This document shows positions 12,560-63,719 of a stretch of DNA of 64,000 nt, one piece after another (position 1 is the first letter of the stretch; every line of letters starts with the position of its first letter). The stretch is from Leucoraja ocellata (Eukaryota). The notes under the pieces are model-generated. The model did not search any database. It was not told the DNA's origin and saw nothing but the letters and a program-made list of their open reading frames with translations. The DNA is taken from positions 6,634,001 through 6,698,000 of the forward strand of contig JAWMAR010000023.1 in assembly GCA_036785375.1 (NCBI GenBank), written 5' to 3'. The position numbers were made by a program, and so were the translations under genes.

Positions 12560-13290
12560 AGTATGACCAATGTGGTGTGGGTCCCTGATAATGCCGGCTG
12601 TCTTTCTGAGGCAGCACCTCCAATAGATCCCTTCGATGGTGGGGAGGTCAGTATCCGTAATGGACTGGGCCGTGTGTACTAGCTTTTGCAATTTCCTTTG
12701 TTCCAATGTTCATCCTGCACCAGAAATCGTTGGTGAACCATGCAAAGGAAACCAGGCCTGAATTTTGTCAAGTTTTATCTGCATTCAGATATGAAAAGTC
12801 TCTTAACATTATTCATTAGAGTGGATGCTTAATTAGACTGGAGCCACATCCAATGTGAACCTCTCATCACTTCCTCTCTTGTTCCTCTCCCTCTCCCTCC
12901 TGTACACCTTATTTTTTCTTTCCTGTAAAGCACCTTGAATTGCTGTTTGCACGAATGGTGCTATACAAATAAACTTGCCTTGCCTTGCCTTACACCTACT
13001 CTTCCAACTACGTTTGCAGTGCCAAAGGCGGAATCATGGAGACGTAATGCATAAACTATGGAGGAAGCAACATAAATACCTTAGAAGAGGAAGGCTGAGG
13101 ATCCACAAACCTGTTTCATTGACGGATCGGTGGTGGAGGAAGTCACCAACTTCAGGTTCCTGGACGTGAACAATCTCTGAAGATCTGTCCTAGACCAGCA
13201 CATTGATGCAATCATAAAGCGAGCCTATCAACGCCTCTACTTTCTTAGAAGATTGTGGAGATTTGCTATGTCGACAAATGCTCTCTTCAA
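12560..13290. mobile_element. Rex1/Babar LINE fragments (12560-12705 minus; about 13025-13290 plus)
   Basis: Translation RKLQKLVHTAQSITDTDLPTIEGIYWRCCLRKTAGIIRDPHH and a VEEVTNFRFLG-like segment typical of Rex1 RT C-termini. Confidence 0.7.
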
Positions 13291-13875
13291 GTGAAGTGAC
13301 AAGCCTACTGAACTGATCGTATGTGAAGCAAGCTCCTTGGGTTGTTCCACAAAGATTTTCAAGATTGTAATGACATGCTTAGCAAACATTCATGCTAACC
13401 TATGCAGTCTACAACAATCATATATATTTTTTCATTATTTTAACCTTGGGTTTTATTTTCCTCCCTCATTTTCCCTCCATATATCTTTTCTCTTTTTTCT
13501 CTTCCTTCTCCCTCATTTCCTATTTTTCCTTCCTTATTCTTACCCCTCTCTTCATCAATCATTATCAGTATGACTAATAGACGTAATGTTTCCTGCAAAT
13601 TGATCTGGAAGAGGTTACTGCCTTGTCCAGAATGTGTGTTCTGTTTTTGATATGTTTGAACATGGCTCCCTCCTCCTGGGGCTTGTGTAACATTCAATGA
13701 TCAGTCATGCTACTGCTATTCACAAACACTCAATTATTATTCAGGCTCCAATATTATAATTCCATGAAAAACAGGTAATTCTGTGGGCAGGAAATGAGTG
13801 ATTAAAACATCAAGAATGACGCTGCGACTGTTAGACTTTAAAAATATTTTAAAAATCAATCCTACTCTCAACAGA

Positions 13876-14904: not shown

Positions 14905-15770
14905 AGACAGACACAAAAAGCTGGAGTAACTCAGCGGGTCAGGCAGCATCTCTGGAGAAAAGGAATAGGTTACGTTTTTGTTCAAGACCCTTTTTCAGAC
15001 TGTGGGTCAGGGGGAATGGGAATGAGAGATACGGACAGTGCTTAGGAGATATAAATGAAAGATATGTAAAAAGCAGCGATAATCAAGGAATTGTGGAGTA
15101 CACGATTGGCTACTGTTGGATGTGGGAGAGGTGACAACGAGTAAACAGAGGGACGCAACAGAATGACAGTAAAAATAACGGTCTGAAGAAGGGTCTCGTC
15201 CTGAAACATCACCCATTCCTTCTCTCCAGAGATGCTGCCTGTCCCACTGAGTTACTCAAGCATTTTGTGTCAATCTTCTGTGTAAACCAGCTTCAGCAGT
15301 TCCTTCCTAAATAGTAAAACTTATATGATGACTAGGATGGGGGAGGGATGATGAGGCAAGGGTTTCTTGGTTAGATAAATCAATATTTATACTACTGGGT
15401 TGTAAGCTGCCCAAGTGAAATATGATATGCTATTCCTCTAATTTACATTTGGCCTCACTCTGACAATGGAGGAGGCCCAGGACAGAAAGGTCAGTGTGGA
15501 AATGGGAAGGGGAGTTAAAGTGTTTGACAACTGGGAGATCATGTAGGCCGAGGAGGACTGGGCGAAGGTGTACAGCGATGCGATCACCGAGTCTGCGCTT
15601 GGTCTCGCCGATATATAGGAGCTGACACCTGGAGCAGCGGATACAGTAGATGAGGTTGGAGGAGGTGCAGGTGAACCTCTGCCTCACCTGAAAGAACTGT
15701 TGTTGGTCCCTGGGCAGTCGAGGGAGGAGGGATAGGAACAGGTATTGCATCTCCTGCGGTTGCGAGAACG
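14905..15770 (-). mobile_element. Penelope-like element remnant: GIY-YIG endonuclease region plus 3' terminal repeat, with an opposed terminal-repeat copy at 15180-15310
   Basis: ORF 15430-15870 contains FTCTSSNLIYCIRCSRCQLLYIGETKRRLGDR..H...PVVKHFN (GIY-YIG with Cys/His motif); the downstream sequence ends in the same ~130-bp repeat dispersed through the window. Confidence 0.9.
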
Positions 15771-16339
15771 GGAGCTCTGATGTGACAATAAAGAATAAAT
15801 GATACCGAGCCCTCCCAAAAATAATAGACCTAGAGAATGAAAATGTACTCTGAGTTCCAATTCTAATCACAGAAGGAAGCTGGAATCCAAACCCGATTCA
15901 GTGAGTAAGTTATTAGTCACTGTAAGGCTCCTCGTGACGGAGATACTATAATACTGAAGGAAGTATGACATGCGATCTGACCCATGCATTTAATTGATTG
16001 ATTCAGCATACTGGCTAACTATTGCAACATATCAGTTGGGTGACTGAACTGTGTATTGGCAACAATCTATGGCTATTATGTAAGTTGACCGTTGAGAGGT
16101 CAGAGGAAGCCAAGCCAATTACCGACACATGACACACTGGATCAATGTGAAATGCTGAATAGTTAACATTAGCCAGGTGACACTGCCCCTCCAAGTCAGC
16201 AGGCAATGTGGCTGAAGTTTTATTCCGTAGGTTTGAAGCTCATAATATAGGCCAGAGCATTATGGAGGGAGATTTTATCTTTGAGATGAGATGTTAACCT
16301 GTTGGAACTCTCACATGAATGTAAAAGGTCCTGTAGTGC

Positions 16340-17099: not shown

Positions 17100-19160
17100 T
17101 CAAGTTCAGTCACGTCAAGTTGAGTTTATTGTCAGATGCACAAGTATTGTGAACTACAGATACCAATGAAAATCTTACTTACAGCAGCATTACGGATGTA
17201 AAGACTCGCACAACACACAAAAACATAAATTCTAGTTTAGTTTAGTTTATTATTGTCACATGTACCAAGGTACAGTCAAAAGCTTTGTTTGCATGTTCTC
17301 CAGTCAAAGGAAAGACCGTACATGATTACATTCAAGCCGACTACACTGCACAGATAAAGAGTACAACATTTAGTGCAAAACAAAGTCTGACAAAGTCTAA
17401 TTAAAGATAGTTCAAAGGACTCCAATGAGGTAGACAAGGAGGTCTATGATGTGATTATCTATGACATGATGGTGGATGTAGATAGGAGGTCAGGGCCACA
17501 GAGAGCACCATTCAGTTACCTGATAACAGGTTGGAAGAAACTGTTCCTAAATCTGGAGGTATGTGTTTTCAATCTTCTGGACCTCTTGCCTGACGGGAGA
17601 GAGGAGAGGGCGAAGAGGGTGAAACTGGTCCTTGTTTATGCTGGTGGCCTTGCTGAGGCAGCGTGAAGTTTAGATAGAGTCAATGGAAGGGAGGTTGGTT
17701 TGTGCGATAGTTTGTGCTACATCCACAACTCTCTGCAATTTCTTGCAGGTTTGCATGGAGTTGTTCCCAAACCAGGCTGTGATGCATCCTGATAAAATAC
17801 TTTCTATTGCACATCTGTAGAATTCAGTGAGGGTTGTTGGGGATGTGCTGAACTTCCTAAGTCTTCAAAGGAAGTAAAGGCATTGGTATGCTTTCTTGGC
17901 CATAGCTTCAATGTGGCTGGTCCATGACAAATTGCTGGTGATATTTTTTCTTAGGAACTTGAAGCTTTCGACCATCTTCACCTTGGCACCATCAATGTAT
18001 GTACTACTTTGTTTCCAAAAGTCAATCACAATTCTCCCTTTGTCTTGCTGACAATAAGGAAGAGGTTAAATACACAAAATGCTGAAGTTACTCAGCGGGA
18101 CAGGCAGCATCTCTGGAGAGAAGGAATGGGTGACATTTCGGGTGGAGACCCTTCTTCAGACTGATAGTGTGTCTCTCTTTAGTCCACCATCTGCAGTTCC
18201 TTCATACACAATAAGGGAGAGGTTGTTGTCTTGGCACCAGGTTAAAAGGTTCTCAATCTCCTTTTTGTACTCCGGGCCACTGTGGTGGTGTTGGCTGCGA
18301 ACTTGTAAATTGAGTTGGTAATTAGCTGCAGTCATGAGAGTATAAGGAGAATAGTAGGCTGAAACCGCATCCTTGTAGGGCACCAATGTTGAATTATCAT
18401 AGGGGATGATTTGTCACCCATCCTCACTTATTGGGGTCTGTTGGTCAAGAAGTTGAGGATCCAGTTGCAGAGGGGAGTGCTCACTCCAAATTCCACGTGT
18501 TTGGTGATGAGCTTGGTTGCGATAATGGTATTGAAAGCAGAGGTATAGTCGGTGAACAGGAGTTTGACTTAGGTGTCCTTCTTATCCAGGTGTTCTAAGG
18601 ATGAGTGTAGGGCCAGGAAGATGGCATCAGTGGAGTACCTGTCATGGTGGTAGCTGATCTGTAGTGGATCAAGGCTGCTTGGCAGGCTAGAGTTAATGTG
18701 TGCCATAACCAGCCTCTCAAAGCACTTTATGATGGTGGATGTTAAGGCCACTCGACAGTAATCATTAAGGCATGACATCTTGATTTTGTTTGGAAAAAGG
18801 ATGATAGTAGTCTTCTTGAAGGAGGTGAGTACCTCCAAACAGAATAAGGAGAGATTAAAGGTGTTTGTGAACACCCCTACCAGTCAGTCCACGCATTTTG
18901 TAAGGACATGGAAAGACTGTGCAATACATGTCGACCTGTTGTGGCAATAAGTAAATTGAAGAGGATCCAGATTATTTCTGAGACAGCAGTGCCATAACCA
19001 GTGCCACTTAATTACGGTGGGTATAAGTGCTACTGGACAATAGTCATTGAGGCAGGTCACAGTGCTCTTCTTGGGCACCAGTATAATAGATAAAACTTTT
19101 TGAAGCAAGTGGGAACTTAATTCTGTGGAAGTGCGAGGCTGAAGATGTCCTTGAATACTC
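17100..19160 (-). mobile_element. Rex1/Babar LINE remnant(s) with degraded RT; Penelope repeat inserted at about 18070-18210
   Basis: ORFs 18569-18874 and 18884-19108: FKKTTII..P.K..SCLNDY..VALT..I.KCFERLV...I...LDPLQ..Y..NRST motif occurs twice; tail near 17100-17270. Confidence 0.85.
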
Positions 19161-34922: not shown

Positions 34923-35489
34923 GTAAGTATCTCACTCGAGTAGGGTAAATGTTTGAACATTTCTGTTTTATACATAAATTACTTTTGATAAAAGTAATTG
35001 TGATGGTTTATTTTTAAATTATTTATTTGATCATTTGGGGGGGAGGGGGGGGGGTGGCTGCTATTGACAATGCCAGCATTTATTATACATTTTCAAATGG
35101 CCCTGCACTAAGGAACCAGTTGGGAGTCACTCTGATTGTTGTGAGAAAAACCCACATAACCTGTGGGGGGTGGGGGGCTTGGGAAGACTCCTTATAACGA
35201 TCATTCGTGGGCAATAAGCACCAGCCTTGACAATTATTTTTGTTTCTCCGTGTTCGTTTGGTAAACTTTTTTTCATACTTGTTGTAATACTGTGAAACTA
35301 TTTCACATGAACTGAGAAAATCTCAGGCTCTGAGACCAACTCTTGGTTGGTCTTCAAAATAATTCTTGAGAGGGATGCTGATTAACCAGTGGCACTGGAT
35401 CTCCGAACTCTGCAAAATGCAGAAGGAGAGAGAGAAAGCTGTGAGATGTTTAACATTTTAAAAGAAAATCCTTTCCTCCCATGAAATAG

Positions 35490-36646
35490 GACAAGACGAG
35501 GAGCCATTTGGACTGAATAGATACTGCTGCTTTGGAAGATCATCCTTCCACAAGATACGACCACCACCTCTGAAAATGCAAAACTCTGAGGAATCGTTTG
35601 TACAGCTGGAAAAGGATCAGGTTTTGCCTCATTTTAAGAAACTCTCAGTAAACAGCACAATGTTGTCACCACCTCAAACACCAGTGAGGGGAGCAACTGC
35701 ACTAATTAATTTTGGATGTTCCAGTGACCGAAGCTCTAAGCCGCTCCCCCCACTGCCTTTCCCTTGTGATGAGTTATTCGATGATGTGGACAGTGAGGTT
35801 GAGTCCATTACGAACTCTGAAACTGACTTGCTCTTGCATGATAACCGACCATTGGGCTTCAGATATGGCGCTCCCAGCAGAAGGAGTTTCCGTGGATGTG
35901 GGCAGACCAACTATGCCTACTCTGAGAGTATCAGTCGCACTAGATTACCAGAGAGTTGCCATGTTATAAAAGATACTTGCCTGGAAAATAAAGAGGTCAC
36001 TGTACAACCTGTTAAGCCCCACCGTAAATTACGGCGTTCGCATTCGGGCCCAGCTGGATCCTACAACAAGCCTACCATACTGAAAAATGCAAGTTGCCTC
36101 TCAAACTCATTGACAAATACCAGTGAGATAAAGCCTGAGATTCCCCCTCGAGTACCCATACCCCCACGGCCAGTGAAACATGACTACCGGAGATGGTCTG
36201 CAGAGGTTATGTCAGCCATGCACTGTGATGAGGACAAACCACCAAAGGTTCCTCCAAGGGAACCTATGTCCAGAAGCAATTCACGCACCCCAAGTCCCAA
36301 AAGTCTCCCGGCTTACCTCAATGGGGTGATGCCACCAACACGAAGCTTTGCACCTGATCCCAAATATGTCAGCAACAAAGTCCTCCAACGGCAAGCAAGT
36401 GATGGGGCAACGACACGGGTACCATGTATTTTGCCAATCATTGAAGATGGGAAGAAGGTGAGCTCGACACACTACTACTTGCTTCCTGAGAGACCTCTAT
36501 ACCTTGACAAATTTGAGAAATATTTAGTAGAGACCCAAGCCTCAGAGGAATCAAATGATTGCACAACAGAGAGCTTCAAGACATTTGCTTTGAGCAAACC
36601 AGTAACAATTAAACAGAAACTTGTTTCCAATGTGGACGCTCCTTAG
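35490..36646 (+). CDS. ERRFI1: ERRFI1 last coding exon (ERBB receptor feedback inhibitor 1, 454 aa total)
   Basis: DQV..FKKLSVN, RRSFRGCGQ.NYAY, LRRSHSGPAGS, PPRVPIPPRP, DYRRWSAEV, PKSLPAYLNGVMPPTRSFAPDPKYVS and PCILPIIEDGKKVSSTHYYLLPERP (EGFR-binding segments); acceptor atag at 35489 is in frame. Confidence 0.98.
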
Positions 36647-38929: not shown

Positions 38930-40850
38930 AACCATAGAAAATAGACGCAGGAGTAGGCCATTCGGCCCTTCAAGCCTGCACCGCCATTCAATATGATCAT
39001 GGCTGATCATCCCCAATCAGTACCCCGTCCCTGCCTTCTCCCCATATCCTCTGACTCAGCTATCTTTAAAAGCCCTCTCTAGCTCTCTCTTGAAAGTATC
39101 CAGAGAACTGGCCTCCACCGGCCTCCACTCTGAGGCAGAGAATTCCACAGACTCGCAACTCTGTGAGAAAAAGTGTTTCTTTGTCTCTGTTCTAAATGGC
39201 TTAGTTAGCCCTTATTCTTAAACTGTGGCCCCTGGTTCTGGACTCCCCCAACATTGGGAACATGTTTCCTGCCTCTAGCGTGTCCAAACCTTTAACAATC
39301 TTATATGTTTCAATAAGATAACCTCTCATCCTTCTAAACTCCAGAGTGTACAAGCACAGCCGCTCCATTCTCTCGGCATATGACAGTCCCGCCATCCCGG
39401 GAATTAACCTAGTAAACCTACGCTGCACTCCCTCAATAGCAAGAATGTCCTTCCTCAAATTAGGGGACTAAAACTGCACACAATACTGCAGGTGTGGTCT
39501 CATTGGGACTCCGTACAACTGTGGAAGGACCTTTTTGCTCCTATACTCGACTCCTTGTTATAAAGGCCAACATGCCATTTGTTTTCTTCACTGCCTGCTG
39601 TACCTGCATGCTTACTTTCATAGACTGATGAACAAGGACCCCCCAGATCCCGTTGTACTTCCCCTTTTCCCAACTTGACGCCATTTAGATCTGCCTTCCT
39701 GTTTTTGATACCGAAGTGTATAATCTCACATTTATCCACATTAAACTTCATCTGCCATGTATCTGCCCACTCCCCCAACCTGTCCAAGTCGCCTTGCAGA
39801 CTCATAGCATCCTCCTCACAGTTCACACCGCCACCCAGCTTTGTTCAATCTGCAAATTTGCTCATGTTACTTTGAATCCCTTCATCTAAATCACTGATGT
39901 ATATTGTAAATAGCTGCGGTCCCAGCACTGAGCCTTGCGGTACCCCACTTCTCACTGCCTGCCATTCTGAAACGGACCCGTTAATCCCTACTCTTTGTTT
40001 CCTGTCTGCCAACCAATTTTCTATCCATGTCAGCACTCTACCCCCAATGTGCCCTAATTTTGCCCACTAATCTCCTATGTGGGACCTTATCAAAAGCTTT
40101 CTGAAAGTACAGGTACACTACATCCACTGGCTCTCCCTTGTCCATTGTCCTAGTTACATTCTCAAAAAATTCCAGAAGATTCGTCAAGCATAATTTCCCC
40201 TTGGTAAATCCATGCTGACTCGGACCGATCCTGTTACTGCTATCCAAATGTGCGGCTATTTCATCTTTTATAATTGACTCCAGCATCTTCCCCACCACTG
40301 ATGTCAGGCTAACTGGTCTATAATTTCCTGTTTTCTCTCTCCCGCCTTTCTTAAAAAGTGGGATAATATTAGTTACCCTCCAATCTACAGGAACCGAACC
40401 TGAGTCTATGGAACATTGGAAAATTATCACCAATGCATCCACCATTTCTAGAGCCACTTCCTTAAGTTACCCTGGGATGCAGACCATCAGGCCCTGGGGA
40501 TTTATCAGCCTTCAGTCCCATCAGTCTATCCAACACCATTTCCTGCCTAATGTGGATTTCCTTCAGTTCCTCCGTCGCCCCAGATCCTCTGGCCACTAGT
40601 ATATCAGGAAAATCGTTTGTGTCCTCCTTAGTGAAGACGGATCCAAAGTACCTGTTCAACTCATCTGCCATTTCCTTGTTCTCCATAATAAATTCACCTT
40701 TTTCGGTCTTCAAGGATCCAACTTTGGTCTTAACTAATTTTTTCCTCTTCACATACCTAAAGAAGCTTTTACTGTCCTCCTTTATTTTCATGGCTAGCTT
40801 ACCTTCGTACCTCATCTTTTCTCCCCGTATTGTCTTTTTCGTTATCTTCT
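38930..40850 (-). mobile_element. CR1 LINE, 5'-truncated, frameshifted RT
   Basis: ORF fragments [77 protein letters not shown]. Confidence 0.95.
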
Positions 40851-45710: not shown

Positions 45711-47049
45711 ATTTATAACCTAGTTATTGACTCCTCTGCTAAGGAAATGTCTCACTTTCTAAGCTTCTCATAATTTCTAAACCAGTGCAGCACAGGAACG
45801 GGCCCTTCGGCCCACAATTTTGTACATAATTGTGTACCTTAGAATATTTGTGGTTCCTAGATAAAGTCTCAAGAGCATAAATGATCCAGCATTTGGTCAT
45901 AATTAACATAATTCCTGGATTAACTCTTCGAGTTTGGTTCCCAAATTTAGCTTCAGAAAATAAGCATTTCCAAGATTAGGTTCCAGCAAATATATAGTAT
46001 ATAGATTTTGACTAAGAATGTAAGTGGTTGTGAATTTGGTCTGTTAGTCGAAATGATCTCGGGATCCTTGGCATAGGTGGTTACTGAATTAGAGCTTGTG
46101 GTCCCATGATTTGGTAATTCAGAAAACATGGCACTTTGTTTTAATTTCTCGTGATGATTGACCTCAGGATTTGTTCCTCTGTGGAAATGGTCCACAAATT
46201 TGGTGACAGAGCACACACACTCTTGCTATCTTGATGCAACCCAGATTTGGTTTCTCAGTTTAAATCAGGGTTGCATAACGATTCGTGGAAGGCAAGATGT
46301 ACAATCTAAACCATTTCTGATGGCCATACACAAGAAACTGATGTTTTGTAATATGCCATTCAGTAAAATACATAAGAGCTAAATGGTTTCTTCAAAACGC
46401 TAATTGGTCATATTGGACACATTAATCTGGGATAGATTACAGGTTAAAATTGTAGTTGCAGTGGTAATCATAGAAGATGATATTTCATAAATCTCAGCAG
46501 AGGTATATTTCAGTGAGACAAAGATGAGTATAGACCTTGACTCAGTGCAAGTGATTCCTGATTTGGTTTAAATGAAAATTCTTGCTGCTCTCACAACCCC
46601 CTTGTAGCTCACTTCATTTAATAACTTACATTTTCACACCTCTTTATTTCAGCTTCATGTTATTCCCTTCAATGTAAGAGAACGCTAGTTCTTTTCAAGT
46701 AGATTGGATTCTTCCTTATTTTACAGACCAGTAACTTGGTTGTGGGGTTGGGAGATATGGTAGAGCAATGGTCTTTTGCTGCTACATTTTGTACATGTGC
46801 ACACACAATGTGGCCACTGTACCTTGGTGGGAGTTAATGTTTTAGGCGTTGGACAAATTGCCAGTCTAGTAAATAGCTTTGTCCTTGATGACTTTTTGAG
46901 TTCTGTTGGTTTTGGGGAAACAAGCGTGTAGTGTTCCTTTACAATCCTTATGTACCATGTGAAGAGTGGAAATTCTTTCAAGACTGGTGATCTCTGACTT
47001 GCTTTAAAAATCATAGCATTCTTGATGATGGTCCCGTTAATTTCCAAAT

Positions 47050-47465
47050 AAATGGGACTCCCCAGGATGCTGACGGTGGTTAACGTCGACAATGATGATG
47101 ATGGCACAGACAGGCCGTCAAGAAGATGCGTGACGATTCTTGGACAGGGTCATGTGGACAGTTCGAATGTTAGTGGTCACTTTTCAACGAATGTCTACAC
47201 ATTATCGATGTCCTCCTTTTTTGCATTGACGGCCAAAACTGGTTTTAGACGACGTTTCTCTCAAAAGTCAACCGTGGAGCGACCGACATCCGCGCGGCCT
47301 CATCGATCGACGCTTGGAAGCTTCAAACGCCAACCGTCAGGTCGCGTGAGGCAGGTGGGCGGGAACCACGGAGGCTGTGAGTGAACAAGCAGCGAGCGCG
47401 CGCCACTGGTCCACACAGCCCGGACAACGGCATGTGGCATGTGGCGGGCTCAGTCGTCCTTAAAC
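47050..47465 (-). promoter_or_regulatory. orphan CpG-rich promoter-like island
   Basis: Dense CpG with GC-box/E2F GTGGGCGGGAA 47355-47365, CHR TTTGAA (minus strand, 47322-47327) and YAACNG sites; no recognisable repeat tail. Confidence 0.45.
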
Positions 47466-47759
47466 CCAATTTAATTTTTATTCTCATCATAATTGGGCGT
47501 CGAATGTTGATATTGACCGCCGTTACTCTCGCCCATCCTACCTCGAGTCATGATCGTTCTGATATTCAAATAATTTCTTAACACACACTCTCATTCCTAT
47601 TCTCATATATTTTTCCTTTAATGATTCTCTTACTACTCTGCATGGTAAATTTGACATCTCGGCAGCGTGACCCTCAGATCGTAATGCTGTTGCGTATCCC
47701 CAATTGACCTGGCTTCTCCGTGGAGTTTGCACGCTCCAGCTGTGGCGCGCAGGTTTCCT

Positions 47760-50722: not shown

Positions 50723-51654
50723 TTAATTTGCATCATTCTGCCTCTTCGTGTAATCCTGAATGCAGGATTGGAAATAAACCATGGTGTTATTCTGTGGCAT
50801 AAACAAAATGATGTAACATTTTGGAACAAAATAGCCCAGAGCAATACTAAAGGCACTAGTGACAGTTAGGAAAGTCTGTATGTATGAGGTGTACCTTTCC
50901 TGATTGGGGGTGACCATTGATGTCATATACAGAATGTAATACACAAAACAGATCATCATACTGAAGGCAATGAACTTAGCCTCATTGTAATTTTTTGGTA
51001 GGTCTCTTCCCATATAAGCAAAGATGAAACATGCTACTGTTAGAAAAACAGTGTAAAGAAAACTGAGAGAGAAGCCAATGGTGTTACCAATGTTGCAGTC
51101 CAGGACAATTGCTTTCGTAATGATATGCCCAAGAGTGCTGGGTGGGCCTGTAATCATCCACACAGTGCAAATGATGATTTGGATGAAGGTGCTTAAAAAT
51201 ATGAATATGTACTGTCCATTATATTTAACCCAATATTCGTGGGCCTTGGGCAACTTGGCAGCCAGTTTAAAGATACAGACAATTTGAAATGACCTAACCA
51301 AGATACAAGACAGGCAGATGGTGAAGCTGACTGTGAAAATCATCTGTCTTATTTGGCAGGATGCTTTGCTTGGTTTGTCAATGTAGAAAAACGCACAGGA
51401 AAAGCTACAGATTATTGATGCAAGCATGAGAAAACACATTCTGCCACCAGCAGACCTGACAACTGGAGTGTTGTAATTAAGTATAAAGATGATTACTATG
51501 ATAATGGTCAGCAAAAGTCCACCATTCGTCAACATCAATAGAAATATAGAGAAAGGTGCATGCCATTCCAGATAGTTTAGCTCCCGTTCCATGCAGTGAT
51601 GGCTCCTTGGAGGTGACCACTGATGCCAGAGACAATCCACACAACTGTAGGGAT
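50723..51654 (-). CDS. TAS1R1-like: T1R taste receptor A exon 6 (end of Cys-rich domain plus 7TM)
   Basis: TPVVRSAGG.MCFLM, CLSCILVRSFQIVCIFK, LPKNYNEAKFI.FSM, PKCYII, FQSCIQDYTKR; acceptor ttgcag; 932 nt. Confidence 0.96.
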
Positions 51655-52968
51655 CTGCAACAAATTTAATTATGATTAATTCACATGGAGGCCAAGGACA
51701 CTTTAAAGAAACTGTGCTGTGCACATTGGATATGGCAAAGCACCGGATTTGACCCAAAGGTTATTTGGCCTGAAGAAGGGTTTCCGAGCCATAAGTCATC
51801 TGTACATTCCCTCGACAGATGCTGCCTAACAAGCTGAGTTCCTTCAGCACTTTCTTTGACTTTAACAATTTATTGAAAAACTCCCACTCCTTTCAGCAAT
51901 ATTGTCAACCACTTCTTTGAATTTTATACTGTTGAAATCTGTTATAATTCTTAACTTCAGCCTTGCTCATGTTGATTTTCCAGGGGAGACTTTATCTCAT
52001 AGACATGAATAACGTATAGAGCAAATTTTCTTATACACTCTTGGTAAAAAAAAGTCCTCTGGGAGTCCTAGAATACAAAGAACAGGATGAAAGAAAAGTG
52101 ATTGGGGGAAGATTACATGTTGAGCTACCCTTGGACTGTAAACAGGTAAGTGTTCTAGTATTCATTGAAGATGGTAACTACATTTGGTTTACCTCATAGC
52201 TGCCCACTATAGGATTTGCTACATTAGTCCTGATGGACAGACTTTAAACAGGTAGATACAAGAAACTGCAGATGCTGGTTTACAAAAGAAAAAAGACACA
52301 TACTGGAATAACACTGTGGGTTAGGAAATATCGCTGGAGAACATGGATAATGACGTTTTGGGTCAGGACCTTTCCTCAGAGCATCTTAAAGAGGTGCTAG
52401 ACATGTGCTACAGCACATTCTTGGCTAATATAGTAAGTTGCAGACTTCTGTTCACAGTGAGTTTGTGTTTTCATGTAACCTTTTAGGGGATTTAATAGGT
52501 CAATCACCTACTGAAAAACAGAGGCACTTTGTAGACTTCCAATTTAAAAAAATGTTATTTTTAACTCTTTTCTCATCAGTTTCAGAGTGTGAAGCAACCA
52601 ATTGCCCACAAAGATTCTCTCATTGCATTACTGAACATAATTCTAGGTCCAAAGTTATAGTAATGAATTGTTTTTGTTCCATTTTAATAACCCATAAATT
52701 CCTCTCCTCCCCCCTCCCTCCACATGTGGAGTTAACTAGCGGCTGGTTTTCTGCAGAAAGAAATGGGATCTTGGCTGAATAAAAACCAAAGGTCTCTTTG
52801 GTTGACTCAACCAATGAGGCAAGAGAAGAAATGCAAGCTATTTTGAACAGATTTTCCTATTAGAGGTAAGCAGTTGCAGATGGTGTGATATTTTACAATC
52901 CAATGAGGTCAAGGAAAAAAGTAAATCAAAAACTAGGTGAGGAATAGCGGATAAAGAGGCTTACTGAC

Positions 52969-53089
52969 CACTTTGATTGAGGAATGTTCCAGAGGGACAA
53001 TCTTCACAGTTGTAGCAGCAAGGAAAAATCCCTCTTGGGACTTTCTTCTGTCCAGGTTCACACATCGTTGAACAATTAGAAAATGGAAT
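52969..53089 (-). CDS. TAS1R1-like: T1R receptor A exon 5 (Cys-rich domain; missed by the ORF track)
   Basis: ccag|IPFSNCSTMCEPGQKKVPRGIFPCCYNCEDCPSGTFLNQS G|gtcagt, 121 nt. Confidence 0.95.
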
Positions 53090-53299
53090 CTGGTGGATAA
53101 AATACACAAGACCTCTCTAAGCTTCATATAGAGACCCAGCTATCATTGTAGAAATTAATTTTGCTGTGGAGTGGGGTTGGAAGGGGGAAGACATGGTAGG
53201 TATCTTCCCCATCCAAAGGCAAAAACATTGGTTTTTTTCTCTGGAGCTTCGTAACAGTTCCACAAGAACAAAATTATTAAGTTTTTACAGCGTTCTCAC

Positions 53300-53512
53300 C
53301 AAGTTATCTTCCGAATTCCACTGGATTAAGGATGGATTGATGCTGATCTTTCTTGTAGCTGGCATGTATGAACCAATAGTCTTAAAGTCGACTCCGACTC
53401 TCGTCCAATCCCATGAAACAATGTCATAGCCAACTGGTGGGTCTCCGTTCTCATCAAAATAGAGAGTGTAATCTTGAAGGTTAAATTTCACCGTCTTTAA
53501 TCTGCTGAGTAA
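53300..53512 (-). CDS. TAS1R1-like: T1R receptor A exon 4
   Basis: acag|LLSRLKTVKF...YFDENGDPPVGYDIVSWDW...IQWNSEDNL|gtgaga, 213 nt. Confidence 0.95.
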
Positions 53513-54385
53513 CTGTCACACAAATAATTGAATGCAAATACATGATATCAACATTGAGATTGGGCAGTTCAACCAGTAGGTTTGACATTGTTTATAATTC
53601 ATTCAGTCATCACTGAAATTCTAAATATCACCGGTGTTTGGCTCAAATTCTTTAATTCTACTCGACTGATTTTCCTTACTACTATTTGAGTTTGATTATC
53701 TATTTAATTATGTTTTTGTTGAATTAATTATTGAAAGGTGAGCATTTGGATGTTAAATTTATTAATTGTGATTACGTTTCAGGTTAGATTAGGGGCAAAT
53801 TCTGAGATTTAATGATTTACTTGTCAAGGGCAAGTCTTAAGATCAATTGCTAGGTAATGGCTCACAGTTAAATCTTAAAATTCAAGTTTAAAATATGTCT
53901 TGGGGTTCATTATGCATTCAGTTTTAGGATGTAGACACAGGTACTGCAGATGCTAGTTTACAAAAAAAAAACACGGCAGTCTGAAGAAGGGTCTTGACCC
54001 AAAACGTCACCCATTCCTTCTCTCCAGAGATGCTGCCTGTCCCGCTGAGTTACTCCAGCATTTAGTGTCTACCTTCAATTTAAACCAGCATCTGCAGTTC
54101 TTTCCTACACAAAAGGGAAACTGGAGAGTTGGAAATTTTGGGTAAGGGATATGAGCAGTGGATGAAGTTCAGGAAGATGATGAGGTGAAATTGAGGGATA
54201 TGGGTAGTAAACAAAGTTGGGGGGGATGGGGATAAGATAAAACTGAGGAATAAATGAGGGTGAATGGGATGGATGTGTTAATAAACAGGTTTGTTGTGCA
54301 CGAAGGGCTTCTCTGATTTCCATTAATTTTGACGCTCTCATATATCTGCCTAAATGTGAATCACACTGGATGGGCATACACCTAC

Positions 54386-55144
54386 CTGCCATGGGAGGAA
54401 GCTTTGTGTTCTATCACACTGTGTCGCATTACATTGGAGTAGATCGTGCAATGCATGGGCCACAGCATACACAGCTGAGTATACATTGTGTGAGATTCTC
54501 TTCTCCAGGCTGGGTGATGAAAAGTTTAAATGCTTAGCCTTCAGCCAATCACATTCTTGATCACAGGTGCCTCTGTTAATGGTACACTCTCCCAATCTTA
54601 GGCCTGGCACGATCCCTGAGTAAATGTGGTTCAGAGGTTTGTCTAGGAATTCCTTAAAGTGTGTCAATTCCCCTTCCTTAACCGCTATGCCAATAACAGT
54701 CCCAATACTCTCAATTCTTGGTATTTTTGTTATCTCCTCCGACAATGAAATGGCCTCACTTACGATCCACACTTTGGAAGTAAGATTTTGAGCCACAACA
54801 AAACTGAAAAATACTTGTGCTATTAACTTATTGGAAAAGAGAATTGTAACATTGACAGTGCTGCTGATGTTGTTAATGACTTGGTTGATAATCTCGGGGG
54901 AAGTAGAGATGATACCCTGATACGCAATGCAAGTCCCCAGCGCCGAGGCCATTTCCACCACTTTGGTTAGTCCATTGCGTCCATATTCATTGTCACTGCC
55001 AACAACAGCAATCCAGTTCCAATGGAATTCCTGGATCAGTAAAGCCATGGCTTCTACTTGATTCTTGTCACTCGGAATAGTCCGGAAAAATGACGGGAAA
55101 CGCATTTTGTCACTCAGAATCTCACCAGATGCCAGGTAGCTAAT
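54386..55144 (-). CDS. TAS1R1-like: T1R receptor A exon 3 (Venus flytrap domain)
   Basis: ctgcag|ISYLASGEILSDKMRFPSFFRTIPSD..Q...FHWNWI...YSAVYAVAHALH.LL.C...PWQ|gtaggt, 759 nt. Confidence 0.96.
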
Positions 55145-55687
55145 CTGCAGAAGCGGAACAAATACCTACGTTAATGCAGAATTTCACAAACAATGAGGTA
55201 TCTTTATGTGCATTTACTGTCAACTCATAGTAAGACAATCTGTGTAAGATTGCATAAAAAGCAATAAAGGAATAAAAATGAACAAATGATTTGCCAATAA
55301 TTGAAACAAACACCAGGAAGAATTCCCTTACTCTTTATCACATATTATGTGCCATAATATCTTTAATATTCGCCTGTGAGGGCAGAAGTGGCCTTACCTG
55401 AAAGGTAGTTATCTGCCAGTGCAACTACCCATATTGCTGCATTGCTCTCCCGGTAGGGATTCTTATGTTCAAGTCCATTTTGGTTCAGAGATGTGCCACC
55501 ACTAAGAAATATACTCATCCAGAGTAAATCACCTTTCCTTCAGGTCGTTCCATCCAAAGTATAATATGGGGTTTACTGATAAAAGTGTTAGGATCCCTAG
55601 CTGCCCTCTTGTTCAGATGATGAACGTACTGCCCGCAATAACATCTCACATGTTTTAATACACCGTTAGCCTAGTCTAATCAGAACA

Positions 55688-55853
55688 AGCTAGAGTAACT
55701 CAGCGGGACAGGTAGCATCTCTGGAGAGGTGAGTGGGTGACGTTTCGGGTCGAGACCCTTCTTTCTCTCCAGAGATGTTGCCTGTCCTACTGAGTTACTC
55801 CAGTTTTTTTGTGTCTATCTTCAGTGTAAACCAGCATCCGCAGTTCCTTCCTA
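55688..55853. mobile_element. fold-back pair of Penelope-derived terminal repeats in T1R-A intron 2
   Basis: gagtaactcagcgggacaggtagcatctctggaga ... tctccagagatgttgcctgtcctactgagttactc forms a near-perfect inverted repeat. Confidence 0.8.
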
Positions 55854-56234
55854 AACAAATCAGGACAATATTACCATATCAAAGGAGATAACAGGAGTGA
55901 CCAAAAATGTGAACTTTAACAAAGCTGTGGAAGGATAAGAGTCATGTGGAGGTCGTAGAGGGCAGAGGTAAAGGAAAGGGGTCTTTTAGAAATTAGAATC
56001 TGATTAACAGAACATTCGAGCATGGTGAAGTTTGGATGTAATGGGACAGAAGGTATTTTCAAGATTATGGAGGATGAGATATTAAAGTATTTAAACCCAA
56101 GGACAACAATTTAACTTTTGATAAAGGAACCATAAACATACGTAGATTATCATGAACAGTAGGAATGAATAAATTGGGCTTGGTGCAGGATAGCTAACAA
56201 AAAATATAGTTATAGTTGTTCAAAACACTGCAGA

Positions 56235-57036
56235 TGCCACATTCTGAGTATTGTGTTCGGTTTTGTTAACACTACTAAAGGGACAATGTCATTATGCTGG
56301 AAAGACTGCAGAGATGATTCACAATGACGTTGCCAGGACTTGAGGGCCTGAGCCATCGGAGGAGATTGGGGAAGCTAGGATTTTATTCCTTTGAGGGTGT
56401 GAGGCTAAGGGTGATCTTATAGAGGTGTATACAATTGTGAGGGGAATTGATAGGGCGAATGCACAGAGACTTTCACTCTGGAGAAACAGAGAACACAGGT
56501 TTAAGGTGATAGGTGCCTGAGAGGCAACTTTTTCAGAGGGACGTGGATATAGGGAATAAGCTGCCAGAGGAGGTACAATAACAACATTTAAAAGATACAT
56601 AGACAGGTACATGGATAGGAAAGGTTTGGGGGGATATGGGCCAAATGCACGCAAATGGGATAAGCTGTAATGGGGATAAGCTGTACTTGGTTGGCATGGA
56701 TAAATTGGGCGAAAGGTCTGTTTCTGCATTGTATGACTGACTCAATGAGATTACCTAAAATTTACAAAAGTAAAAGGATAGGAAGGTTACCATCAGAAGA
56801 GTGTGTCTTTACTCAAAGAGTGGTAGCTGTATGGAATGAGCTTCCAGAGGAACTGGTGAAGGCAGGTTCGTCTTTATCATTTAAAAATAAATTGGATAGG
56901 TATATGGAGGGGAAAGGAATGGAGGGTTATGGTCTGAGTGCAGGTAGATGGAACTAGGTGAGACTAAGTGTTCGGCACGGACTAGAAGGGCCGAGATGGC
57001 CTGTTTCCGTGTTGTAATTATTATATGGTTATATGG
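56235..57036 (+). mobile_element. two adjacent CR1 3' fragments in T1R-A intron 2
   Basis: FTQRVVAVWNELPEELVKAG...FKNKLDRYM; (ttatatgg) tail. Confidence 0.85.
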
Positions 57037-57801
57037 TCATTAAGATTGTAGTAGGAGGCAGGGCCATTAGCTGTTATAAAAATAGAGATTAGGCTTGGTT
57101 GCCTTATGAATTTAAACGCATGATGTAAAGCTTAAACAGGAACCAAAGAACTTTACTGGCTCAGCCAAAGGTAGAAGACATAAAAAGAGGTGAGGTATCG
57201 AGAAGGTATAAAACATGTAATCTTGTAGACAGCAGCTTCCATAGTCCAAATGTTGAGATGGAAGAATTTACAAATGTATTGAAGACTGGATGTCAGAAGA
57301 GTCGAGGAACCTGTGGTATTGTGAATACAGTCATGAAACTGGATATAATACAGTGGAATGTTTTGCATAAATAACATTAGTACTTTTAAGCCTTGTCGAC
57401 AGATGTCACTGCCAAGGGCAGCCTATTTCATTTCTGGTATGTGATGAATTTGCTGCTCATGACCTGGGCAGAGGAAAATCAACCATTTCTAGATCCAATA
57501 ACTGTCCAGTGACATTGGGTGGAAATCCATGATCATGGCCTTCAATATAGTTTGCTAAAGTACCCCGACAAATTGTACAAACATTCAGTACCTAATTTCT
57601 TTAACATAATTTATGGATGTTTACTGAGGCCTTAAACATCTTCAGAAGACCTGATCCTTGTGAAAGCCTTCAGCAGTGATTTTAAATGAGACCATGACAA
57701 CAAAGCCAATTTGAGCATTACGGTAAATTAAGAGAACTGAAACCTGGGCAAACTGCATCTATTGCAGCTCAGACATTAACAAGAATCATGGTGAAACTTA
57801 C

Positions 57802-58105
57802 CTGAGGAATGAGGAAGAAACCTGAAACTCTAGCAATGGTAATTGCTATTTCGCTTGAAGCTGGCCCAATAATAGCGATCACTCTGGGCTGATAGGATGT
57901 ATAATTGTTTAATATCTCCACTTCTGTTCCTTGCTTGCCCGACAGGAATCTGAACATGGTCTGAATATCCACAACTTCAGAGCAACTGTCAGCAATATCA
58001 TAGCCCAGAATAACGCCTGGCAACAGCTCAGTTGAGTTATTAATTTCTTCAAGGGCAAATCTCATTGCTTGGAAATAGATGAACATGTCTTTCTTGAAGA
58101 TTGAC
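57802..58105 (-). CDS. TAS1R1-like: T1R receptor A exon 2
   Basis: cttag|..FQAMRFALEEINNSTELLPGVILGY.I.DSCS...NYTSYQPRVIAIIGPASS...FLIPQ|gtaagt, 304 nt. Confidence 0.96.
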
Positions 58106-58461
58106 CTAAGAAGATATCATTTATTTAAATTAAACTTTTACGGGCAAGAAAATTACTGTATAGCTCAAGAATAACATGGTAGGTAATTTTCACAGGTGTC
58201 AGACATTTGGACAAACATAGGAAAGTGAAACTTGCGAGACAGAAAAACGACCTATCCATTTCACTTACAGGTCATTGAAAATAAAAACGATGTTCCTGAT
58301 TAACATAGGTATATTATCTCGTCTGATGAGTTGAACAGACACAGACATGAGTTGGGAAAATCACTGTGTTGAGGAGCTTTGGGAACCAAAGGTCCGAAGT
58401 CATAAACATACACCACTCGTCGTCAGATGTTTCAGAGTATCAAGTAGACATTTTCTTAAAC

Positions 58462-58870
58462 AAAACACAAAATGGTGGAGAAACTCAGCGGATCAGGCAG
58501 CATCTGTGGAAGGAATGCATAGACAGTTTCAAGTTGGGACTATTCTTCAGAATGATAGGTGTAGAGGGGAGATAGCTGAAAAAGAGGTGGACAAAACCTC
58601 GCCCCAAATCTTCACTCATTCCTTCTCTCCAGAGATGCTGCCTGTCCCGCTGGGTTACTCCAGCTTTTTGTGTCTATCTTCGAGCCACAGGTGAATATAG
58701 GTGAGGAGGGCTTTTGATTGGCAAATGGGTGGCGTAAATGACAAAGGTTAGAGGTGAAAAGGAGACAAAGGGTGTCAGACAAGGAAAGGAGTGAAATTTA
58801 AAGTAGGAAAAGAGTTGTGGGTGGAAAGGGATGGGAGACTCAGTTGGTGAGTGTACGTTTCCCTGAGTTG
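58462..58870. mobile_element. Penelope-derived repeats (opposed copies plus adjacent 3' region)
   Basis: aactcagcggatcaggcagcatc... and cattccttctctccagagatgctgcctgtcccgctg... Confidence 0.7.
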
Positions 58871-60225
58871 CCCAAACAATGAATATATATCTGACCACGT
58901 TTTAACCTGAGATCCCACTTCCAGCAGCTGGATACAATACTTATTGAGATTTATGGCATGGATTCAAGAAATATGAAAAAAACATTCAGATGGAGAGCTG
59001 CTCCTATTCCTAATCCAATGGAACACGTCCACATTGTGAGGCTGACACCTGCCAAACCCAATGTGCAACTCTGAAAAATCCAGGCCAGCAACATTAAGGT
59101 CAAAACATTACTGTCTCCATCTGTGCACTTCAGCTTGATGTGAAAGTGTGATAGCAAGTTCAGGTAGGGTGAAGGAGTGTCCTCAGATGTCAAACTTAGG
59201 AGTGAGATAAAAACACAAGTCGTAGAAAATATTATCATGACTAGAATCAGCAACAATTAGAACAATTAATGTGGAATTCTATGGTTTGAAACATGCAACT
59301 TGTTGGTTGATTCCCATTAAATCTACACTTTCATTAGACCATGACAATGAAATGCCCCAGCTGTAATTCAGTTTTGGATATTTGTTACACCACATATAAA
59401 CCATCTGAATCATTTGACTAGAATGCAACTTATTCCTCGATAATATGTATAAAAAACAACCGTACTTCTCAGTCAGTAACTTTCTTGATGACTTTGAATA
59501 TTCTATTTTTATAATTTATTAATTCATGGCAATTGGACATGACTGACAAGGTCAGCATTTATTACCCATTCTAAATTGTTCTTCAGAAGGTCATGATGAA
59601 TACTTCAAATACAAATAAGGCAATACTATGTGTTGTGCCAGAAGTTAGTGGAGCAATATAGAAACAAAGGCAAGTTCGACTTGGATAGAACTGAAAAGTC
59701 AGAGGTTAGGCTTAAACTGTACGCAAGTTTGATTCAACCACGACCAGGGTAATGGTTGCAGTATTAATCTCTATATTTTAAAGATGATTTTGAGATCATG
59801 GAGAAAGTGCAGAGAATTTTTACAAAGATGATACTAGAAATACGAGGGTGAGAATATCACGAAAGGACAATGTGACTGGATGGCTATCCTCTTGGGCAAA
59901 GTTTGAGCAATGACCCAACTAAAGTTTTAAGATGATGAAAGGTTTTAATTATGTTAATACCCAGAGAATATTTAATTTTGGGGGGAAATCTAACCAGAGG
60001 CCATCATCATAAAACAATCCCTAAGACATTCAATAGGAAATTCTGAATTTCTTGACCAAAGGCGGTGAGAATGTGGAATTTGGTACCATATGGGAGTGGT
60101 TCAAGCAGATTGTATTGATTCATTTAAAGAGAGAAGGACAAGCATTTATGGGACGGAATTATGCTGATCTAAGGAAAGACAGGAGGAGTGGAACAAAGGT
60201 GACAGCAATAATTGGTTATTAATAC

Positions 60226-60360
60226 ATGTGTAGGAAAGAACTGCAGATGCTGGTTTAAATCAAAGGTAGATCGCAAAATGCTGGAGTAACTCAGCGGGGC
60301 AGGCAGCAACTCTGGAGAGAAGGAATGGGTGACGTTTCGGGTCGAGACCCTTCTTCAGAC
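60226..60360 (-). mobile_element. Penelope-derived terminal repeat with consensus minimal hammerhead core
   Basis: Minus strand 60358-60331: CTGAAGA-AGGGTCTCGACCC-GAAA-CG-TC. Confidence 0.8.
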
Positions 60361-60390
60361 ATACTGCCTGTTTCTGAGCTATGTATCCTT

Positions 60391-60498
60391 TGTAATCCTA
60401 CATATATCATGATTGATACAAACAAAACCTGTAATCATACATATAACATGACTGATACAAACAAAACCTGTAATCATACATATAACATGACTGATACA
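60391..60498. repeat. 39-bp tandem repeat (about 2.8 copies)
   Basis: tgatacaaacaaaacctgtaatcatacatataacatgac is exact at 60414-60452 and 60453-60491, with partial flanking copies. Confidence 0.9.
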
Positions 60499-60641
60499 TT
60501 CAGGCCGAACACAAGAACCTCTATACATAAAGACACCAGCAACATACACATAGAGCATGTACATGTATTCATGGTGTGATAGTTATAATATCTCATCAAG
60601 GATGAGTTTTACGCACATAATTTTATTCAGCTGTTACTTAC

Positions 60642-60826
60642 TTCTCACAGCTGGGTACAACAGGCTCTGATCGGTCAACATCTTCAAGTGAGGTAGAGTG
60701 AATAGGAAACAAGCCCCCAATCACATACTCTCCTGGTGAGGTTAATATTCCCGAGCATCCTTCTGAGACAACTCTAATTGGTTCCACTATTGTGGAGTAA
60801 ATATACAGGAGCAAAAGGAAGTACAT
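60642..60826 (-). CDS. TAS1R1-like: T1R receptor A exon 1 (signal peptide; full CDS 2514 nt, 837 aa)
   Basis: MYFLLLLYIYS...PGEYVIGGLFPIH...PSCE AA|gtaagt, 185 nt, phase 2. Confidence 0.94.
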
Positions 60827-62193
60827 TTTGCTACAGAAATGAGATGGAGCTCTCTGTGCTTGGAGGAAGCTGATTTTGCCATTTCAATTTCTTTTAAAGA
60901 ATGCAGTGTGAGGGATGGCTGAAGAGCCAAATGATTGTTTGCATAATATTTCCATAATATTCACTGTTCACTTAAGTTGGCTTTAATGCACATACACCCC
61001 CACATCATCACAAAGATCCCATTCCTCATCTTCAGCTTGTCCCATGATTTAAGTCAAGACTGTTTAATTGTCATAGGTCCTGACAATGGAACAATGACAT
61101 TTTACTTGCAGCAGCTTAATAGACCCATAAATGCAATACACATAAAATATAATATATTTTTAAAATTCAGTAAATTAATAACTAATACCAGTGCAAAACC
61201 CCCCACAGTTTTTAATACAAAGATAGCCCATAGAAGTTCATAGTTGCTGAGGTTAATTTTGTGTAATGTTCAAAATCCCGAAGGTTGTTGGGAGGAAGCT
61301 ATTCTTGAACCTGATGATCATAGTTTTTAGGCTCATGTACGTTTTCCAGATGGTGGGAGCGGAATGATGCAACCACTCGTTATGCTCTCTATCTTGTATC
61401 TGTAAAAGTCCAAAATAGACATTGACATACCGAATCTTGTCAACCTTCTAAGGAAGCATAGGTCTTGATGATCTTCGGAGATATGCATGCCCAGGAACTT
61501 AAAACATGTTGACTCACTCTAATGCCATCTATCAATGAAGACAGGTTTGTGGATTGTTGGCTTTCCCCTCCTAAAATCAACAATCATGTTGGTTTTGCTG
61601 ATGTTGGGGGCAAGATTATTGCTCAGGCACCATTCAATCGAATTTTCAGTCTCCCCCCAAAATTCGAAATGGTTCCATGCTACTCAGGGTTGTTGCAATA
61701 ATGCTGAGAGTTAATATGCAAATTAAAATGTCTCCCCCCCCCCCCCCACCCCCCACCCCCACCACTGTTACCACCATCCTCCGATGTGAAGGCACAATGG
61801 TCTCCATAAAGTCAGTGGTAGGATTAATGGGTTTGCTGGGTAGATGGCTCTAAGGGATTTGATGTTGAAGTTGGAGTTTGGATCGGTGGGTTTAACCTTT
61901 GCCTAAGGGACTTGTTTATCTATTCTTGTTTCTACGTTTGTATCAAACGTTTGTGCCCTTTCCCTTTCTACGAATCAGGTTCATAAAAAAACATTGACCT
62001 TGGATTACTTTTAACCGGAAATATAATTCATTGGTTAGTTGAACATCATTCAGCATGTGTAATATATGCAAATATCCTCAAATTAGGTAATCTAATTATT
62101 TGATTACAAAGAAAACAGATAAAAATGTCCACAAATAAAGTCGTGAATTTTCTGTTTGCACAGTAGGGAAAGACCAATTACTTGTCAGTTAAA
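60827..62193. promoter_or_regulatory. divergent promoter region between two T1R genes, with octamer motifs
   Basis: ATGCAAAC (minus, 60937-60944), ATGCAAAT 61716-61723 and 62066-62073, ETS-like ACCGGAAAT 62014-62022. Confidence 0.6.
61045..61660 (-). mobile_element. degraded Rex1/Babar LINE 3' fragment inside the T1R intergenic region
   Basis: tttaattgtcat...gaacaatgacattttacttgcagcag tail and ggaagctattcttgaacctg / cttctaaggaag.atagg segments shared with 17100-18050. Confidence 0.7.
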
Positions 62194-62390
62194 ATGACTT
62201 GTTACATTTCGCTGTCGGGTTTCCATTTACTGCTGGCCGTGGCTTCTCTAACCGAGGCATCAGGAGTTCATGGAATCAATGCAGAGTACATGGTGTCTGG
62301 AGACTACATCCTTGGAGGACTGTTCCCTTTTCATGAGAATAGCATTGGTCTAGCTCAACGGCTGAAGCCTGAAAGGGTGACTTGTAACAG
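62194..62390 (+). CDS. TAS1R3-like: T1R taste receptor B exon 1
   Basis: aaaATG; hydrophobic signal peptide; GDYILGGLFPFH...R.KP..VTC; AG|gtaaga, 197 nt, phase 2. Confidence 0.92.
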
Positions 62391-63418: not shown

Positions 63419-63719
63419 CTTTTACCCTTATGGTTATGGGATGTTTCTGGCAATGGCGTTTGCGATCGATGAGATAAATAACTCTACCTCCCTATTGCCG
63501 GACATACATCTGGGTTATGAAATCCACGATGACTGTTTCGAGTCACTGGCTTCCATCCTGCCAACTCTTGTATTTTTATCCAGTGACAGAAGGAGTGAGA
63601 TTGATGTGCTCTGCAATTACACAGAGTACAGGAGCAGTGCAATAGCTCTGGTGGGACCATGGACATCGCATCAGGCAATGATCACAGCCAAATTGTTCAG
63701 CTTATTTTTATTTCCACAA
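63419..63719 (+). CDS. TAS1R3-like: T1R receptor B exon 2 (gene continues beyond the window)
   Basis: tttcag|..LAMAFAIDEINNSTSLLP.I.LGYEI.D.C.E...IDVLCNYTEY...GP...ITAKLFSLFLFPQ|gtaagt, 301 nt. Confidence 0.94.

Follow-up and report, generated by a model that had tools for sequence, protein, structure and literature searches.

The closest described system is the chondrichthyan TAS1R cluster reported by Nishihara et al. (PMC10781636), whose sampling, as given in the accessible portion of the paper, left skates outside. In elephant fish, three T1R6 were tested with T1R3C and T1R4, T1R6-2/T1R4 being the sole responder; T1R6-1/T1R3C gave no response, and the authors allow a technical cause for such blanks (accessible portion of PMC10781636). 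Clear responses to sucrose, proline and alanine were obtained with T1R6.1 and T1R3C of red stingray and great white shark in a 2026 preprint, for which the red stingray pair was cloned from oral tissue; its main text, taken without the supplements, contains nothing on linkage, synteny or promoters (bioRxiv 10.64898/2026.08.28.746343). Regarding regulation, the octamer ATGCAAAT, located within 300 bp upstream of TAS1R4, was proposed as a POU2F3/Skn-1a site, and for the remaining novel TAS1Rs the accessible portion of the same study reports that Oct sites were not seen (Nishihara et al., PMC10781636). The accessible part of a POU2F3 preprint holds no octamer data on T1R promoters, and TAS1R genes are not mentioned in the catshark genome paper. 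The matched switching-on of T1R subunits in taste cells is little known. The mammalian genes lie megabases apart, with distances of 5 and 12 Mb separating human TAS1R1 from its two TAS1R relatives (accessible portion of PMC10781636).

In this work, we analysed a 64,000-nucleotide stretch of Leucoraja ocellata DNA (hereafter, the window), for which an initial annotation had proposed a self-contained, co-regulated module of two divergent taste receptor genes with a bidirectional promoter. The divergent start codons lie where that annotation had placed them (60826, minus strand, and 62194, plus strand), with exactly 1367 bases between them, and the opposite strands and outward-facing 5' ends of the two genes give the geometry of a bidirectional pair (Table 1). 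The minus-strand gene encodes a six-exon class C GPCR with ANF_receptor (Venus flytrap) and 7tm_3 (7TM) Pfam domains, and the TAS1R family assignment of the plus-strand gene was made on the 2 of its 6 exons readable within the window. A 39-bp unit is repeated three times in tandem at 60391-60507, in intron 1 of the minus-strand gene. One bulk RNA run from an unspecified tissue, sampled at ~5%, yielded essentially repeat-derived reads and was uninformative on expression; an Rfam search of the window gave no match, and a bacterial promoter scan, irrelevant here, stayed at chance level.

Table 1. Features of the divergent TAS1R6-1/TAS1R3C locus, in window positions.
Feature	Position	Strand	Description
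TAS1R6-1	50723..60826	minus	intact; six exons, GT-AG; open 837-aa frame ending at 50723
TAS1R6-1 exons	60826-60642, 58105-57802, 55144-54386, 53512-53300, 53089-52969, 51654-50723	minus	
Candidate proximal promoter of TAS1R6-1, single-copy	60827..61051	minus	depth at single-copy level in the three related genomes
Two tandem octamer-like motifs, TATGGAAAT and TATGCAAAC	60937..60956	minus, sense	129 and 118 bp upstream of TAS1R6-1 ATG
Decayed 5'-truncated end of a non-LTR retrotransposon	61052..61690	minus	right edge ~61660-61695; from depth and tblastn
Exact TATGCAAAT	61715..61723	plus	478 bp upstream of TAS1R3C ATG, just right of the insertion
Exact TATGCAAAT	62065..62073	plus, sense	octamer 128 bp upstream of TAS1R3C ATG
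TAS1R3C exons 1 and 2	62194-62390, 63419-63719	plus	in frame, 166 aa open; exons 3-6 beyond the window

The identity of both genes was resolved by two trees, a 47-row quick IQ-TREE and a 33-row FastTree, evaluated by local support without bootstrap. In both trees, membership of the minus gene in the TAS1R6-1 clade and of the 166-aa plus-gene fragment in the TAS1R3C clade received a local support of 100. The minus gene clusters with the elephant fish, catshark and whale shark T1R6-1 of PMC10781636, and the plus gene falls within the chondrichthyan T1R3C group, sister to the bony vertebrate T1R3; the reference proteins were paired by eye with sequences in the accessible supplement of Nishihara et al. 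(PMC10781636). Over the compared stretches, the skate TAS1R6-1 is 79% identical to its Hemitrygon orthologue and the TAS1R3C fragment 76%, exon 2 of the latter having its best match in the skate Rhinoraja (92% identity). The plus fragment displays 63-76% identity to shark and ray T1R3C versus 38-40% to shark and ray T1R4; against elephant shark, the values are 46% for T1R4 and 32% for T1R3C, the latter being a model that lacks part of the compared region. TAS1R4, a guess for the plus gene prompted by the octamer, was ruled out by sequence and by trees, in which the gene lies outside the clade of chondrichthyan and lizard T1R4. The earlier labels of T1R1/2-type (minus) and T1R3-type (plus) are therefore correct at branch level, since TAS1R6 is the chondrichthyan sister of TAS1R1/2/5, the genes themselves being TAS1R6-1 and TAS1R3C. 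The skate TAS1R6-1 preserves the serine, aspartate, tyrosine and glutamate residues at the positions taken to be the amino-acid contacts of T1R1. No loci carrying TAS1R6-1/TAS1R3C genes were found in metagenome scans.

The two genes, their cluster and the pairing of their orthologues are already in print. The annotated heterodimer partnership gains support from the working receptor of the stingray and white shark orthologues; since these pair, we infer with good grounds that TAS1R6-1 and TAS1R3C also pair in this skate, provided that TAS1R3C is whole.

The locus constitutes the TAS1R6-1/TAS1R3C end of an old, published chondrichthyan TAS1R cluster (accessible portion of PMC10781636). Among relatives, the RefSeq number of T1R6-1 directly adjoins that of T1R3C in 4 of the 5 species having both (Hypanus, Hemitrygon, Mustelus and Scyliorhinus torazame, with S. 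canicula as the exception) and are found on contigs of equal size in all five; in the former four species, T1R4 takes the next RefSeq number on the T1R3C side. Furthermore, T1R6-1 and T1R4 stand two RefSeq numbers apart in Mobula birostris, Narcine and elephant shark, which have no listed RefSeq T1R3C, and T1R3C and T1R4 are consecutive in M. hypostoma, Cetorhinus and Carcharodon, which have no listed T1R6-1; in whale shark and zebra shark, contigs are equal-sized and RefSeq numbers non-consecutive. Layout in relatives was deduced from accession order, which carries no orientation; on the proposed check of whether the arrangement is kept in other chondrichthyans, this order speaks indirectly for adjacency in sharks and rays. 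For elephant shark, coordinates are available for TAS1R4 (3907115-3912856, minus) and TAS1R6-1 (3921155-3926461, plus), under other gene names that were resolved here from the sequences, and TAS1R3C is absent from the gene list in the accessible part of that report (Sharma et al., PMC6368271). The 8.3-kb gap between both genes could hold a TAS1R3C of 5-7 kb facing away from TAS1R6-1. From RefSeq order and the room left in the elephant shark gap, the unit probably comprises three genes, TAS1R6-1 <- -> TAS1R3C -> TAS1R4, and the description of the pair as self-contained is unsupported and probably wrong, because TAS1R4 comes next after TAS1R3C in sharks and rays. Linkage is moreover unnecessary for pairing, since T1R6-2/T1R4, the pair that works in elephant fish, is split between contigs of differing length in all 8 sharks and rays having both. 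Ray TAS1R4 proteins are labelled "extracellular calcium-sensing receptor-like" in RefSeq, and are therefore hidden from name searches.

Downstream of TAS1R6-1, the large coding exon of ERRFI1 (Mig-6; 35462-36646, plus strand, PF11555) lies tail to tail with it at ~14 kb; ERRFI1 is not mentioned in the accessible text of PMC10781636, and no PARK7 gene was found in the window by short motifs. In the interval onto which both ERRFI1 and TAS1R6-1 face with their 3' ends, a CpG-rich patch (47000-47750; CpG o/e ~1.15, GC 51%) contains two long open frames with no Pfam match, and could be a promoter or a young repeat.

The insertion that had been described in the gap is real and spans ~640 bp. In three related genomes, ~95% identical to the window, contig depth rises to 350-26,000 over 61018-61656 versus ~7-60 on the flanks, and the left edge is sharp, with loose contig ends at 61052. 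The insertion is the stop-broken end of a LINE ORF on the minus strand and resembles a second copy at 18041-17775 (tblastn E 1.7e-6); PF09004 is matched with an E of 0.072 on the insertion and of 2.5e-12 on the related copy, in the latter case beside an RVT_1 match. These features are those of a high-copy, 5'-truncated LINE end with an RT-linked C-terminal region, presumably Rex1-like, and rays belong to the taxa in which Rex1 coverage is highest. More decayed copies of this LINE type are found at 17742-18883 and 13081-13296, and other retroelement debris in the window includes a weak GIY-YIG match (15433-15897, minus), which we take to be Penelope-like, and an RVT_1 match (40041-40466, minus). 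The insertion is carried by all three relatives and is therefore older than their split; none of the three displays an empty site, and no target-site duplication of at least 6 nt was found. In the three relatives, contigs of single-copy depth extend from both genes into this insertion, and none spans the whole gap. Without the insertion, the ancestral gap would have been shorter, as the initial annotation proposed, at ~730-760 bp.

Bidirectional pairs have, by definition, start sites less than 1000 bp apart, and are often associated with GC-rich CpG islands (accessible parts of PMC8424196 and PMC12672016). Taking ATGs, which are not start sites, as a proxy, the spacing in the skate is the full 1367 bp at present and ~730-760 bp once the insertion is subtracted. 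The gap has a GC content of 38% and a CpG o/e of 0.30, is not a CpG island, and does not qualify as a classical bidirectional promoter.

Octamers are the other distinctive component of the gap, and were scanned for with a motif fixed beforehand from the published TAS1R4 result. Two exact octamers are present in the 758 unique gap bases against a mean of 0.08, a count reached in 1 of 1000 first-order Markov simulations; each proximal 200 bp taken alone gives 23 of 1000 simulations, these reaching 2 motifs on the TAS1R6-1 side. Upstream of TAS1R6-1, TATGGAAAT and TATGCAAAC differ from the octamer by one mismatch each. Exact TATGCAAAT occurs four times in the whole window, twice in the gap, and four one-mismatch hits are reached in 12 of 627 sliding 1367-bp windows, of which 3 can be the gap itself and ~9 are others. 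Divergence from one relative, as judged from the 40 of 281 differences listed, is unevenly distributed: only 1 of the 15 differences listed in 60668-61017 falls in 60827-60976 (binomial p ~0.003), and 12 are listed in 68 bp of mid-gap (61783-61850), the listed differences reaching 61922 at most, short of the octamer at 62066.

The best reading of this anatomy, drawn from sequence, is that it fits two separate octamer-bearing proximal promoters better than one bidirectional promoter. We assign a probability of about 0.5 to the reading that a POU2F3 octamer module fronts each gene, with both genes being on in the same taste cells and their closeness adding shared chromatin. In this mechanism, TAS1R6-1 and TAS1R3C would constitute one class C GPCR heterodimer, predicted for the skate to sense sucrose, proline and alanine. 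The AT-rich sequence next to each gene, which holds an octamer ~120-130 bp upstream of the ATG, would serve as a separate proximal promoter; the octamers are probable binding sites of POU2F3/Skn-1a, a POU factor of taste cells that would thereby switch both genes on in the same cells. The back-to-back position would provide shared open chromatin and perhaps a shared middle octamer, so that the layout would help co-expression of TAS1R6-1 and TAS1R3C without guaranteeing it. The exact gap spacing appears unimportant, because a 640-bp LINE is tolerated between the genes. Speaking for this mechanism are the identity and integrity of the genes, the functional pairing of their orthologues, the neighbourhood in relatives, the exact octamers in unique gap sequence, the low divergence next to TAS1R6-1, and the unlinked yet working T1R6-2/T1R4. 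Weighing against it are the silent elephant fish T1R6-1/T1R3C pair, the single mismatches in the motifs upstream of TAS1R6-1 together with the recurrence of four such hits in other 1367-bp windows, the Oct sites reported for TAS1R4 but for no other novel TAS1R, and the position of TAS1R3C exons 3-6 past the window end.

The alternative that survives best is true shared bidirectional control, the model of the initial annotation, according to which the ~750-bp ancestral interval is one element, the same octamers serve both genes, and selection maintains the layout so that subunit expression matches. We regard it as doubtful, although the pair is functional in orthologues, the adjacency of T1R6-1 and T1R3C is kept in sharks and rays, elephant shark TAS1R4 and TAS1R6-1 diverge across 8.3 kb with room for a compact TAS1R3C plus a short gap, and DTX3L/PARP9 offers a precedent. 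Against it, the two genes carry separate octamers, which follow the sense orientation of the respective gene, a LINE sits mid-gap amid fast-diverging sequence, and there is no CpG island; in addition, start sites are probably more than 1 kb apart now, with co-expression of human pairs weakening with distance, and other T1R pairs work unlinked.

Carpet sharks provide a further point for shared control, namely a possible joint decay of TAS1R6-1 and TAS1R3C with TAS1R4 being full length in 4/4 species. Whale shark T1R3C and bamboo shark T1R6-1 were called pseudogenes and bamboo shark T1R3C is missing from the tree in the accessible portion of PMC10781636; gapped models were found here for whale shark T1R6-1 and zebra shark T1R3C. 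The whale shark T1R6-1 has an X in exon 3 in addition to its gapped RefSeq model, and carries no pseudogene flag in the accessible portion of PMC10781636. A joint decay of the two genes in this group, with retention of TAS1R4, is only hinted at by these signs, because similar model gaps occur in other species; the hint bears more on the subunits being partners than on their promoter being common. A more specific version seems unlikely to us; in it, the ~750-bp ancestral interval would act as a compact control element, driven by POU2F3 and working in both directions, by which the two subunits of a sugar and amino-acid receptor have been tied together since before the chimaera split from sharks and rays. 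If true, such an element would preserve the original regulatory logic of the T1R heterodimer (one octamer module, two subunits), explain the apparent joint decay of the carpet shark genes, and make the octamer known from TAS1R4 a feature of all three genes in the cluster.

A historical leftover, in which the arrangement is the trace of a tandem duplication plus inversion, regulation is independent and distant, and the octamers arose by chance or are unused, is considered quite improbable. In its favour, gene order in chondrichthyans changes slowly, other parts of the window also hold clusters of one-mismatch motifs, and axolotl TAS1R3A1/TAS1R4, which is not an alpha/beta pair, diverges too, with ~109 kb between the genes. 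TAS1Rs are also found side by side in many lineages regardless of pairing (accessible portion of PMC10781636). Nonetheless, a leftover fits poorly with the enrichment of exact octamers and their matched position upstream of both ATGs, with the low divergence upstream of TAS1R6-1, and with the adjacent genes being exactly the functional partners. Lastly, decay in skates, with TAS1R3C broken downstream of the window and no heterodimer formed, is highly improbable. TAS1R3C could be broken, since its exons 3-6 are beyond the window and since residues 599-721, part of the transmembrane region, are missing from the Rhinoraja T1R3C model (annotation noise or decay); in addition, neither a skate T1R6-1 nor a skate T1R4 is named among the 120 matches listed for each. 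Against decay, the TAS1R6-1 frame is uninterrupted through all 837 aa, as is the frame of TAS1R3C in exons 1-2, 5 of the 9 exon-1 differences listed in one relative are silent with 3 of the 4 changes within the first 15 residues, and gene models of other species have similar gaps.

We consider two features to be the apparent additions of this work, as they were not found in print: the shortness of the divergent gap, and the presence of octamers in front of TAS1R3C and of TAS1R6-1. In the accessible literature, subscription journals excepted, no head-to-head layout, shared promoter or octamers are stated for TAS1R6-1/TAS1R3C, and the accessible text of PMC10781636, figures aside, describes no head-to-head pair or shared region and an octamer for TAS1R4 only; elephant fish gene directions are drawn in its Fig. 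3a and Extended Data Fig. 7. Here, the partner genes of a receptor with known ligands have their starts less than 1.4 kb apart and an octamer in front of each, and therefore a short fragment would directly test both POU2F3 drive and a shared element.

Several described systems resemble this locus in part. The genes ora1/ora2, which we take to encode V1R-type receptors and not subunits of an obligate heterodimer, differ in this respect from the skate T1R pair. They are alike in being chemoreceptor genes arranged head to head, a layout that elephant shark and teleosts have both retained (accessible part of PMC4728799). DTX3L/PARP9 likewise are close, opposite-strand genes whose products bind each other, but pairs of this type usually have CpG islands, whereas the skate gap, known from sequence only, is CpG-poor with a LINE in its middle (accessible parts of PMC8424196 and PMC12672016). 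The T1R6.1-T1R3C receptors of stingray and white shark are the direct orthologues of the skate pair, with ligand responses having been measured there and the genes alone being described here. Finally, the cluster of Nishihara et al. and the skate locus share gene clades, six-exon structure, side-by-side genes and ATGCAAAT close upstream of an ORF, and differ in their flanks, which are DVL1 and MXRA8 in the former and ERRFI1, downstream of TAS1R6-1, in the skate (accessible portion of PMC10781636).
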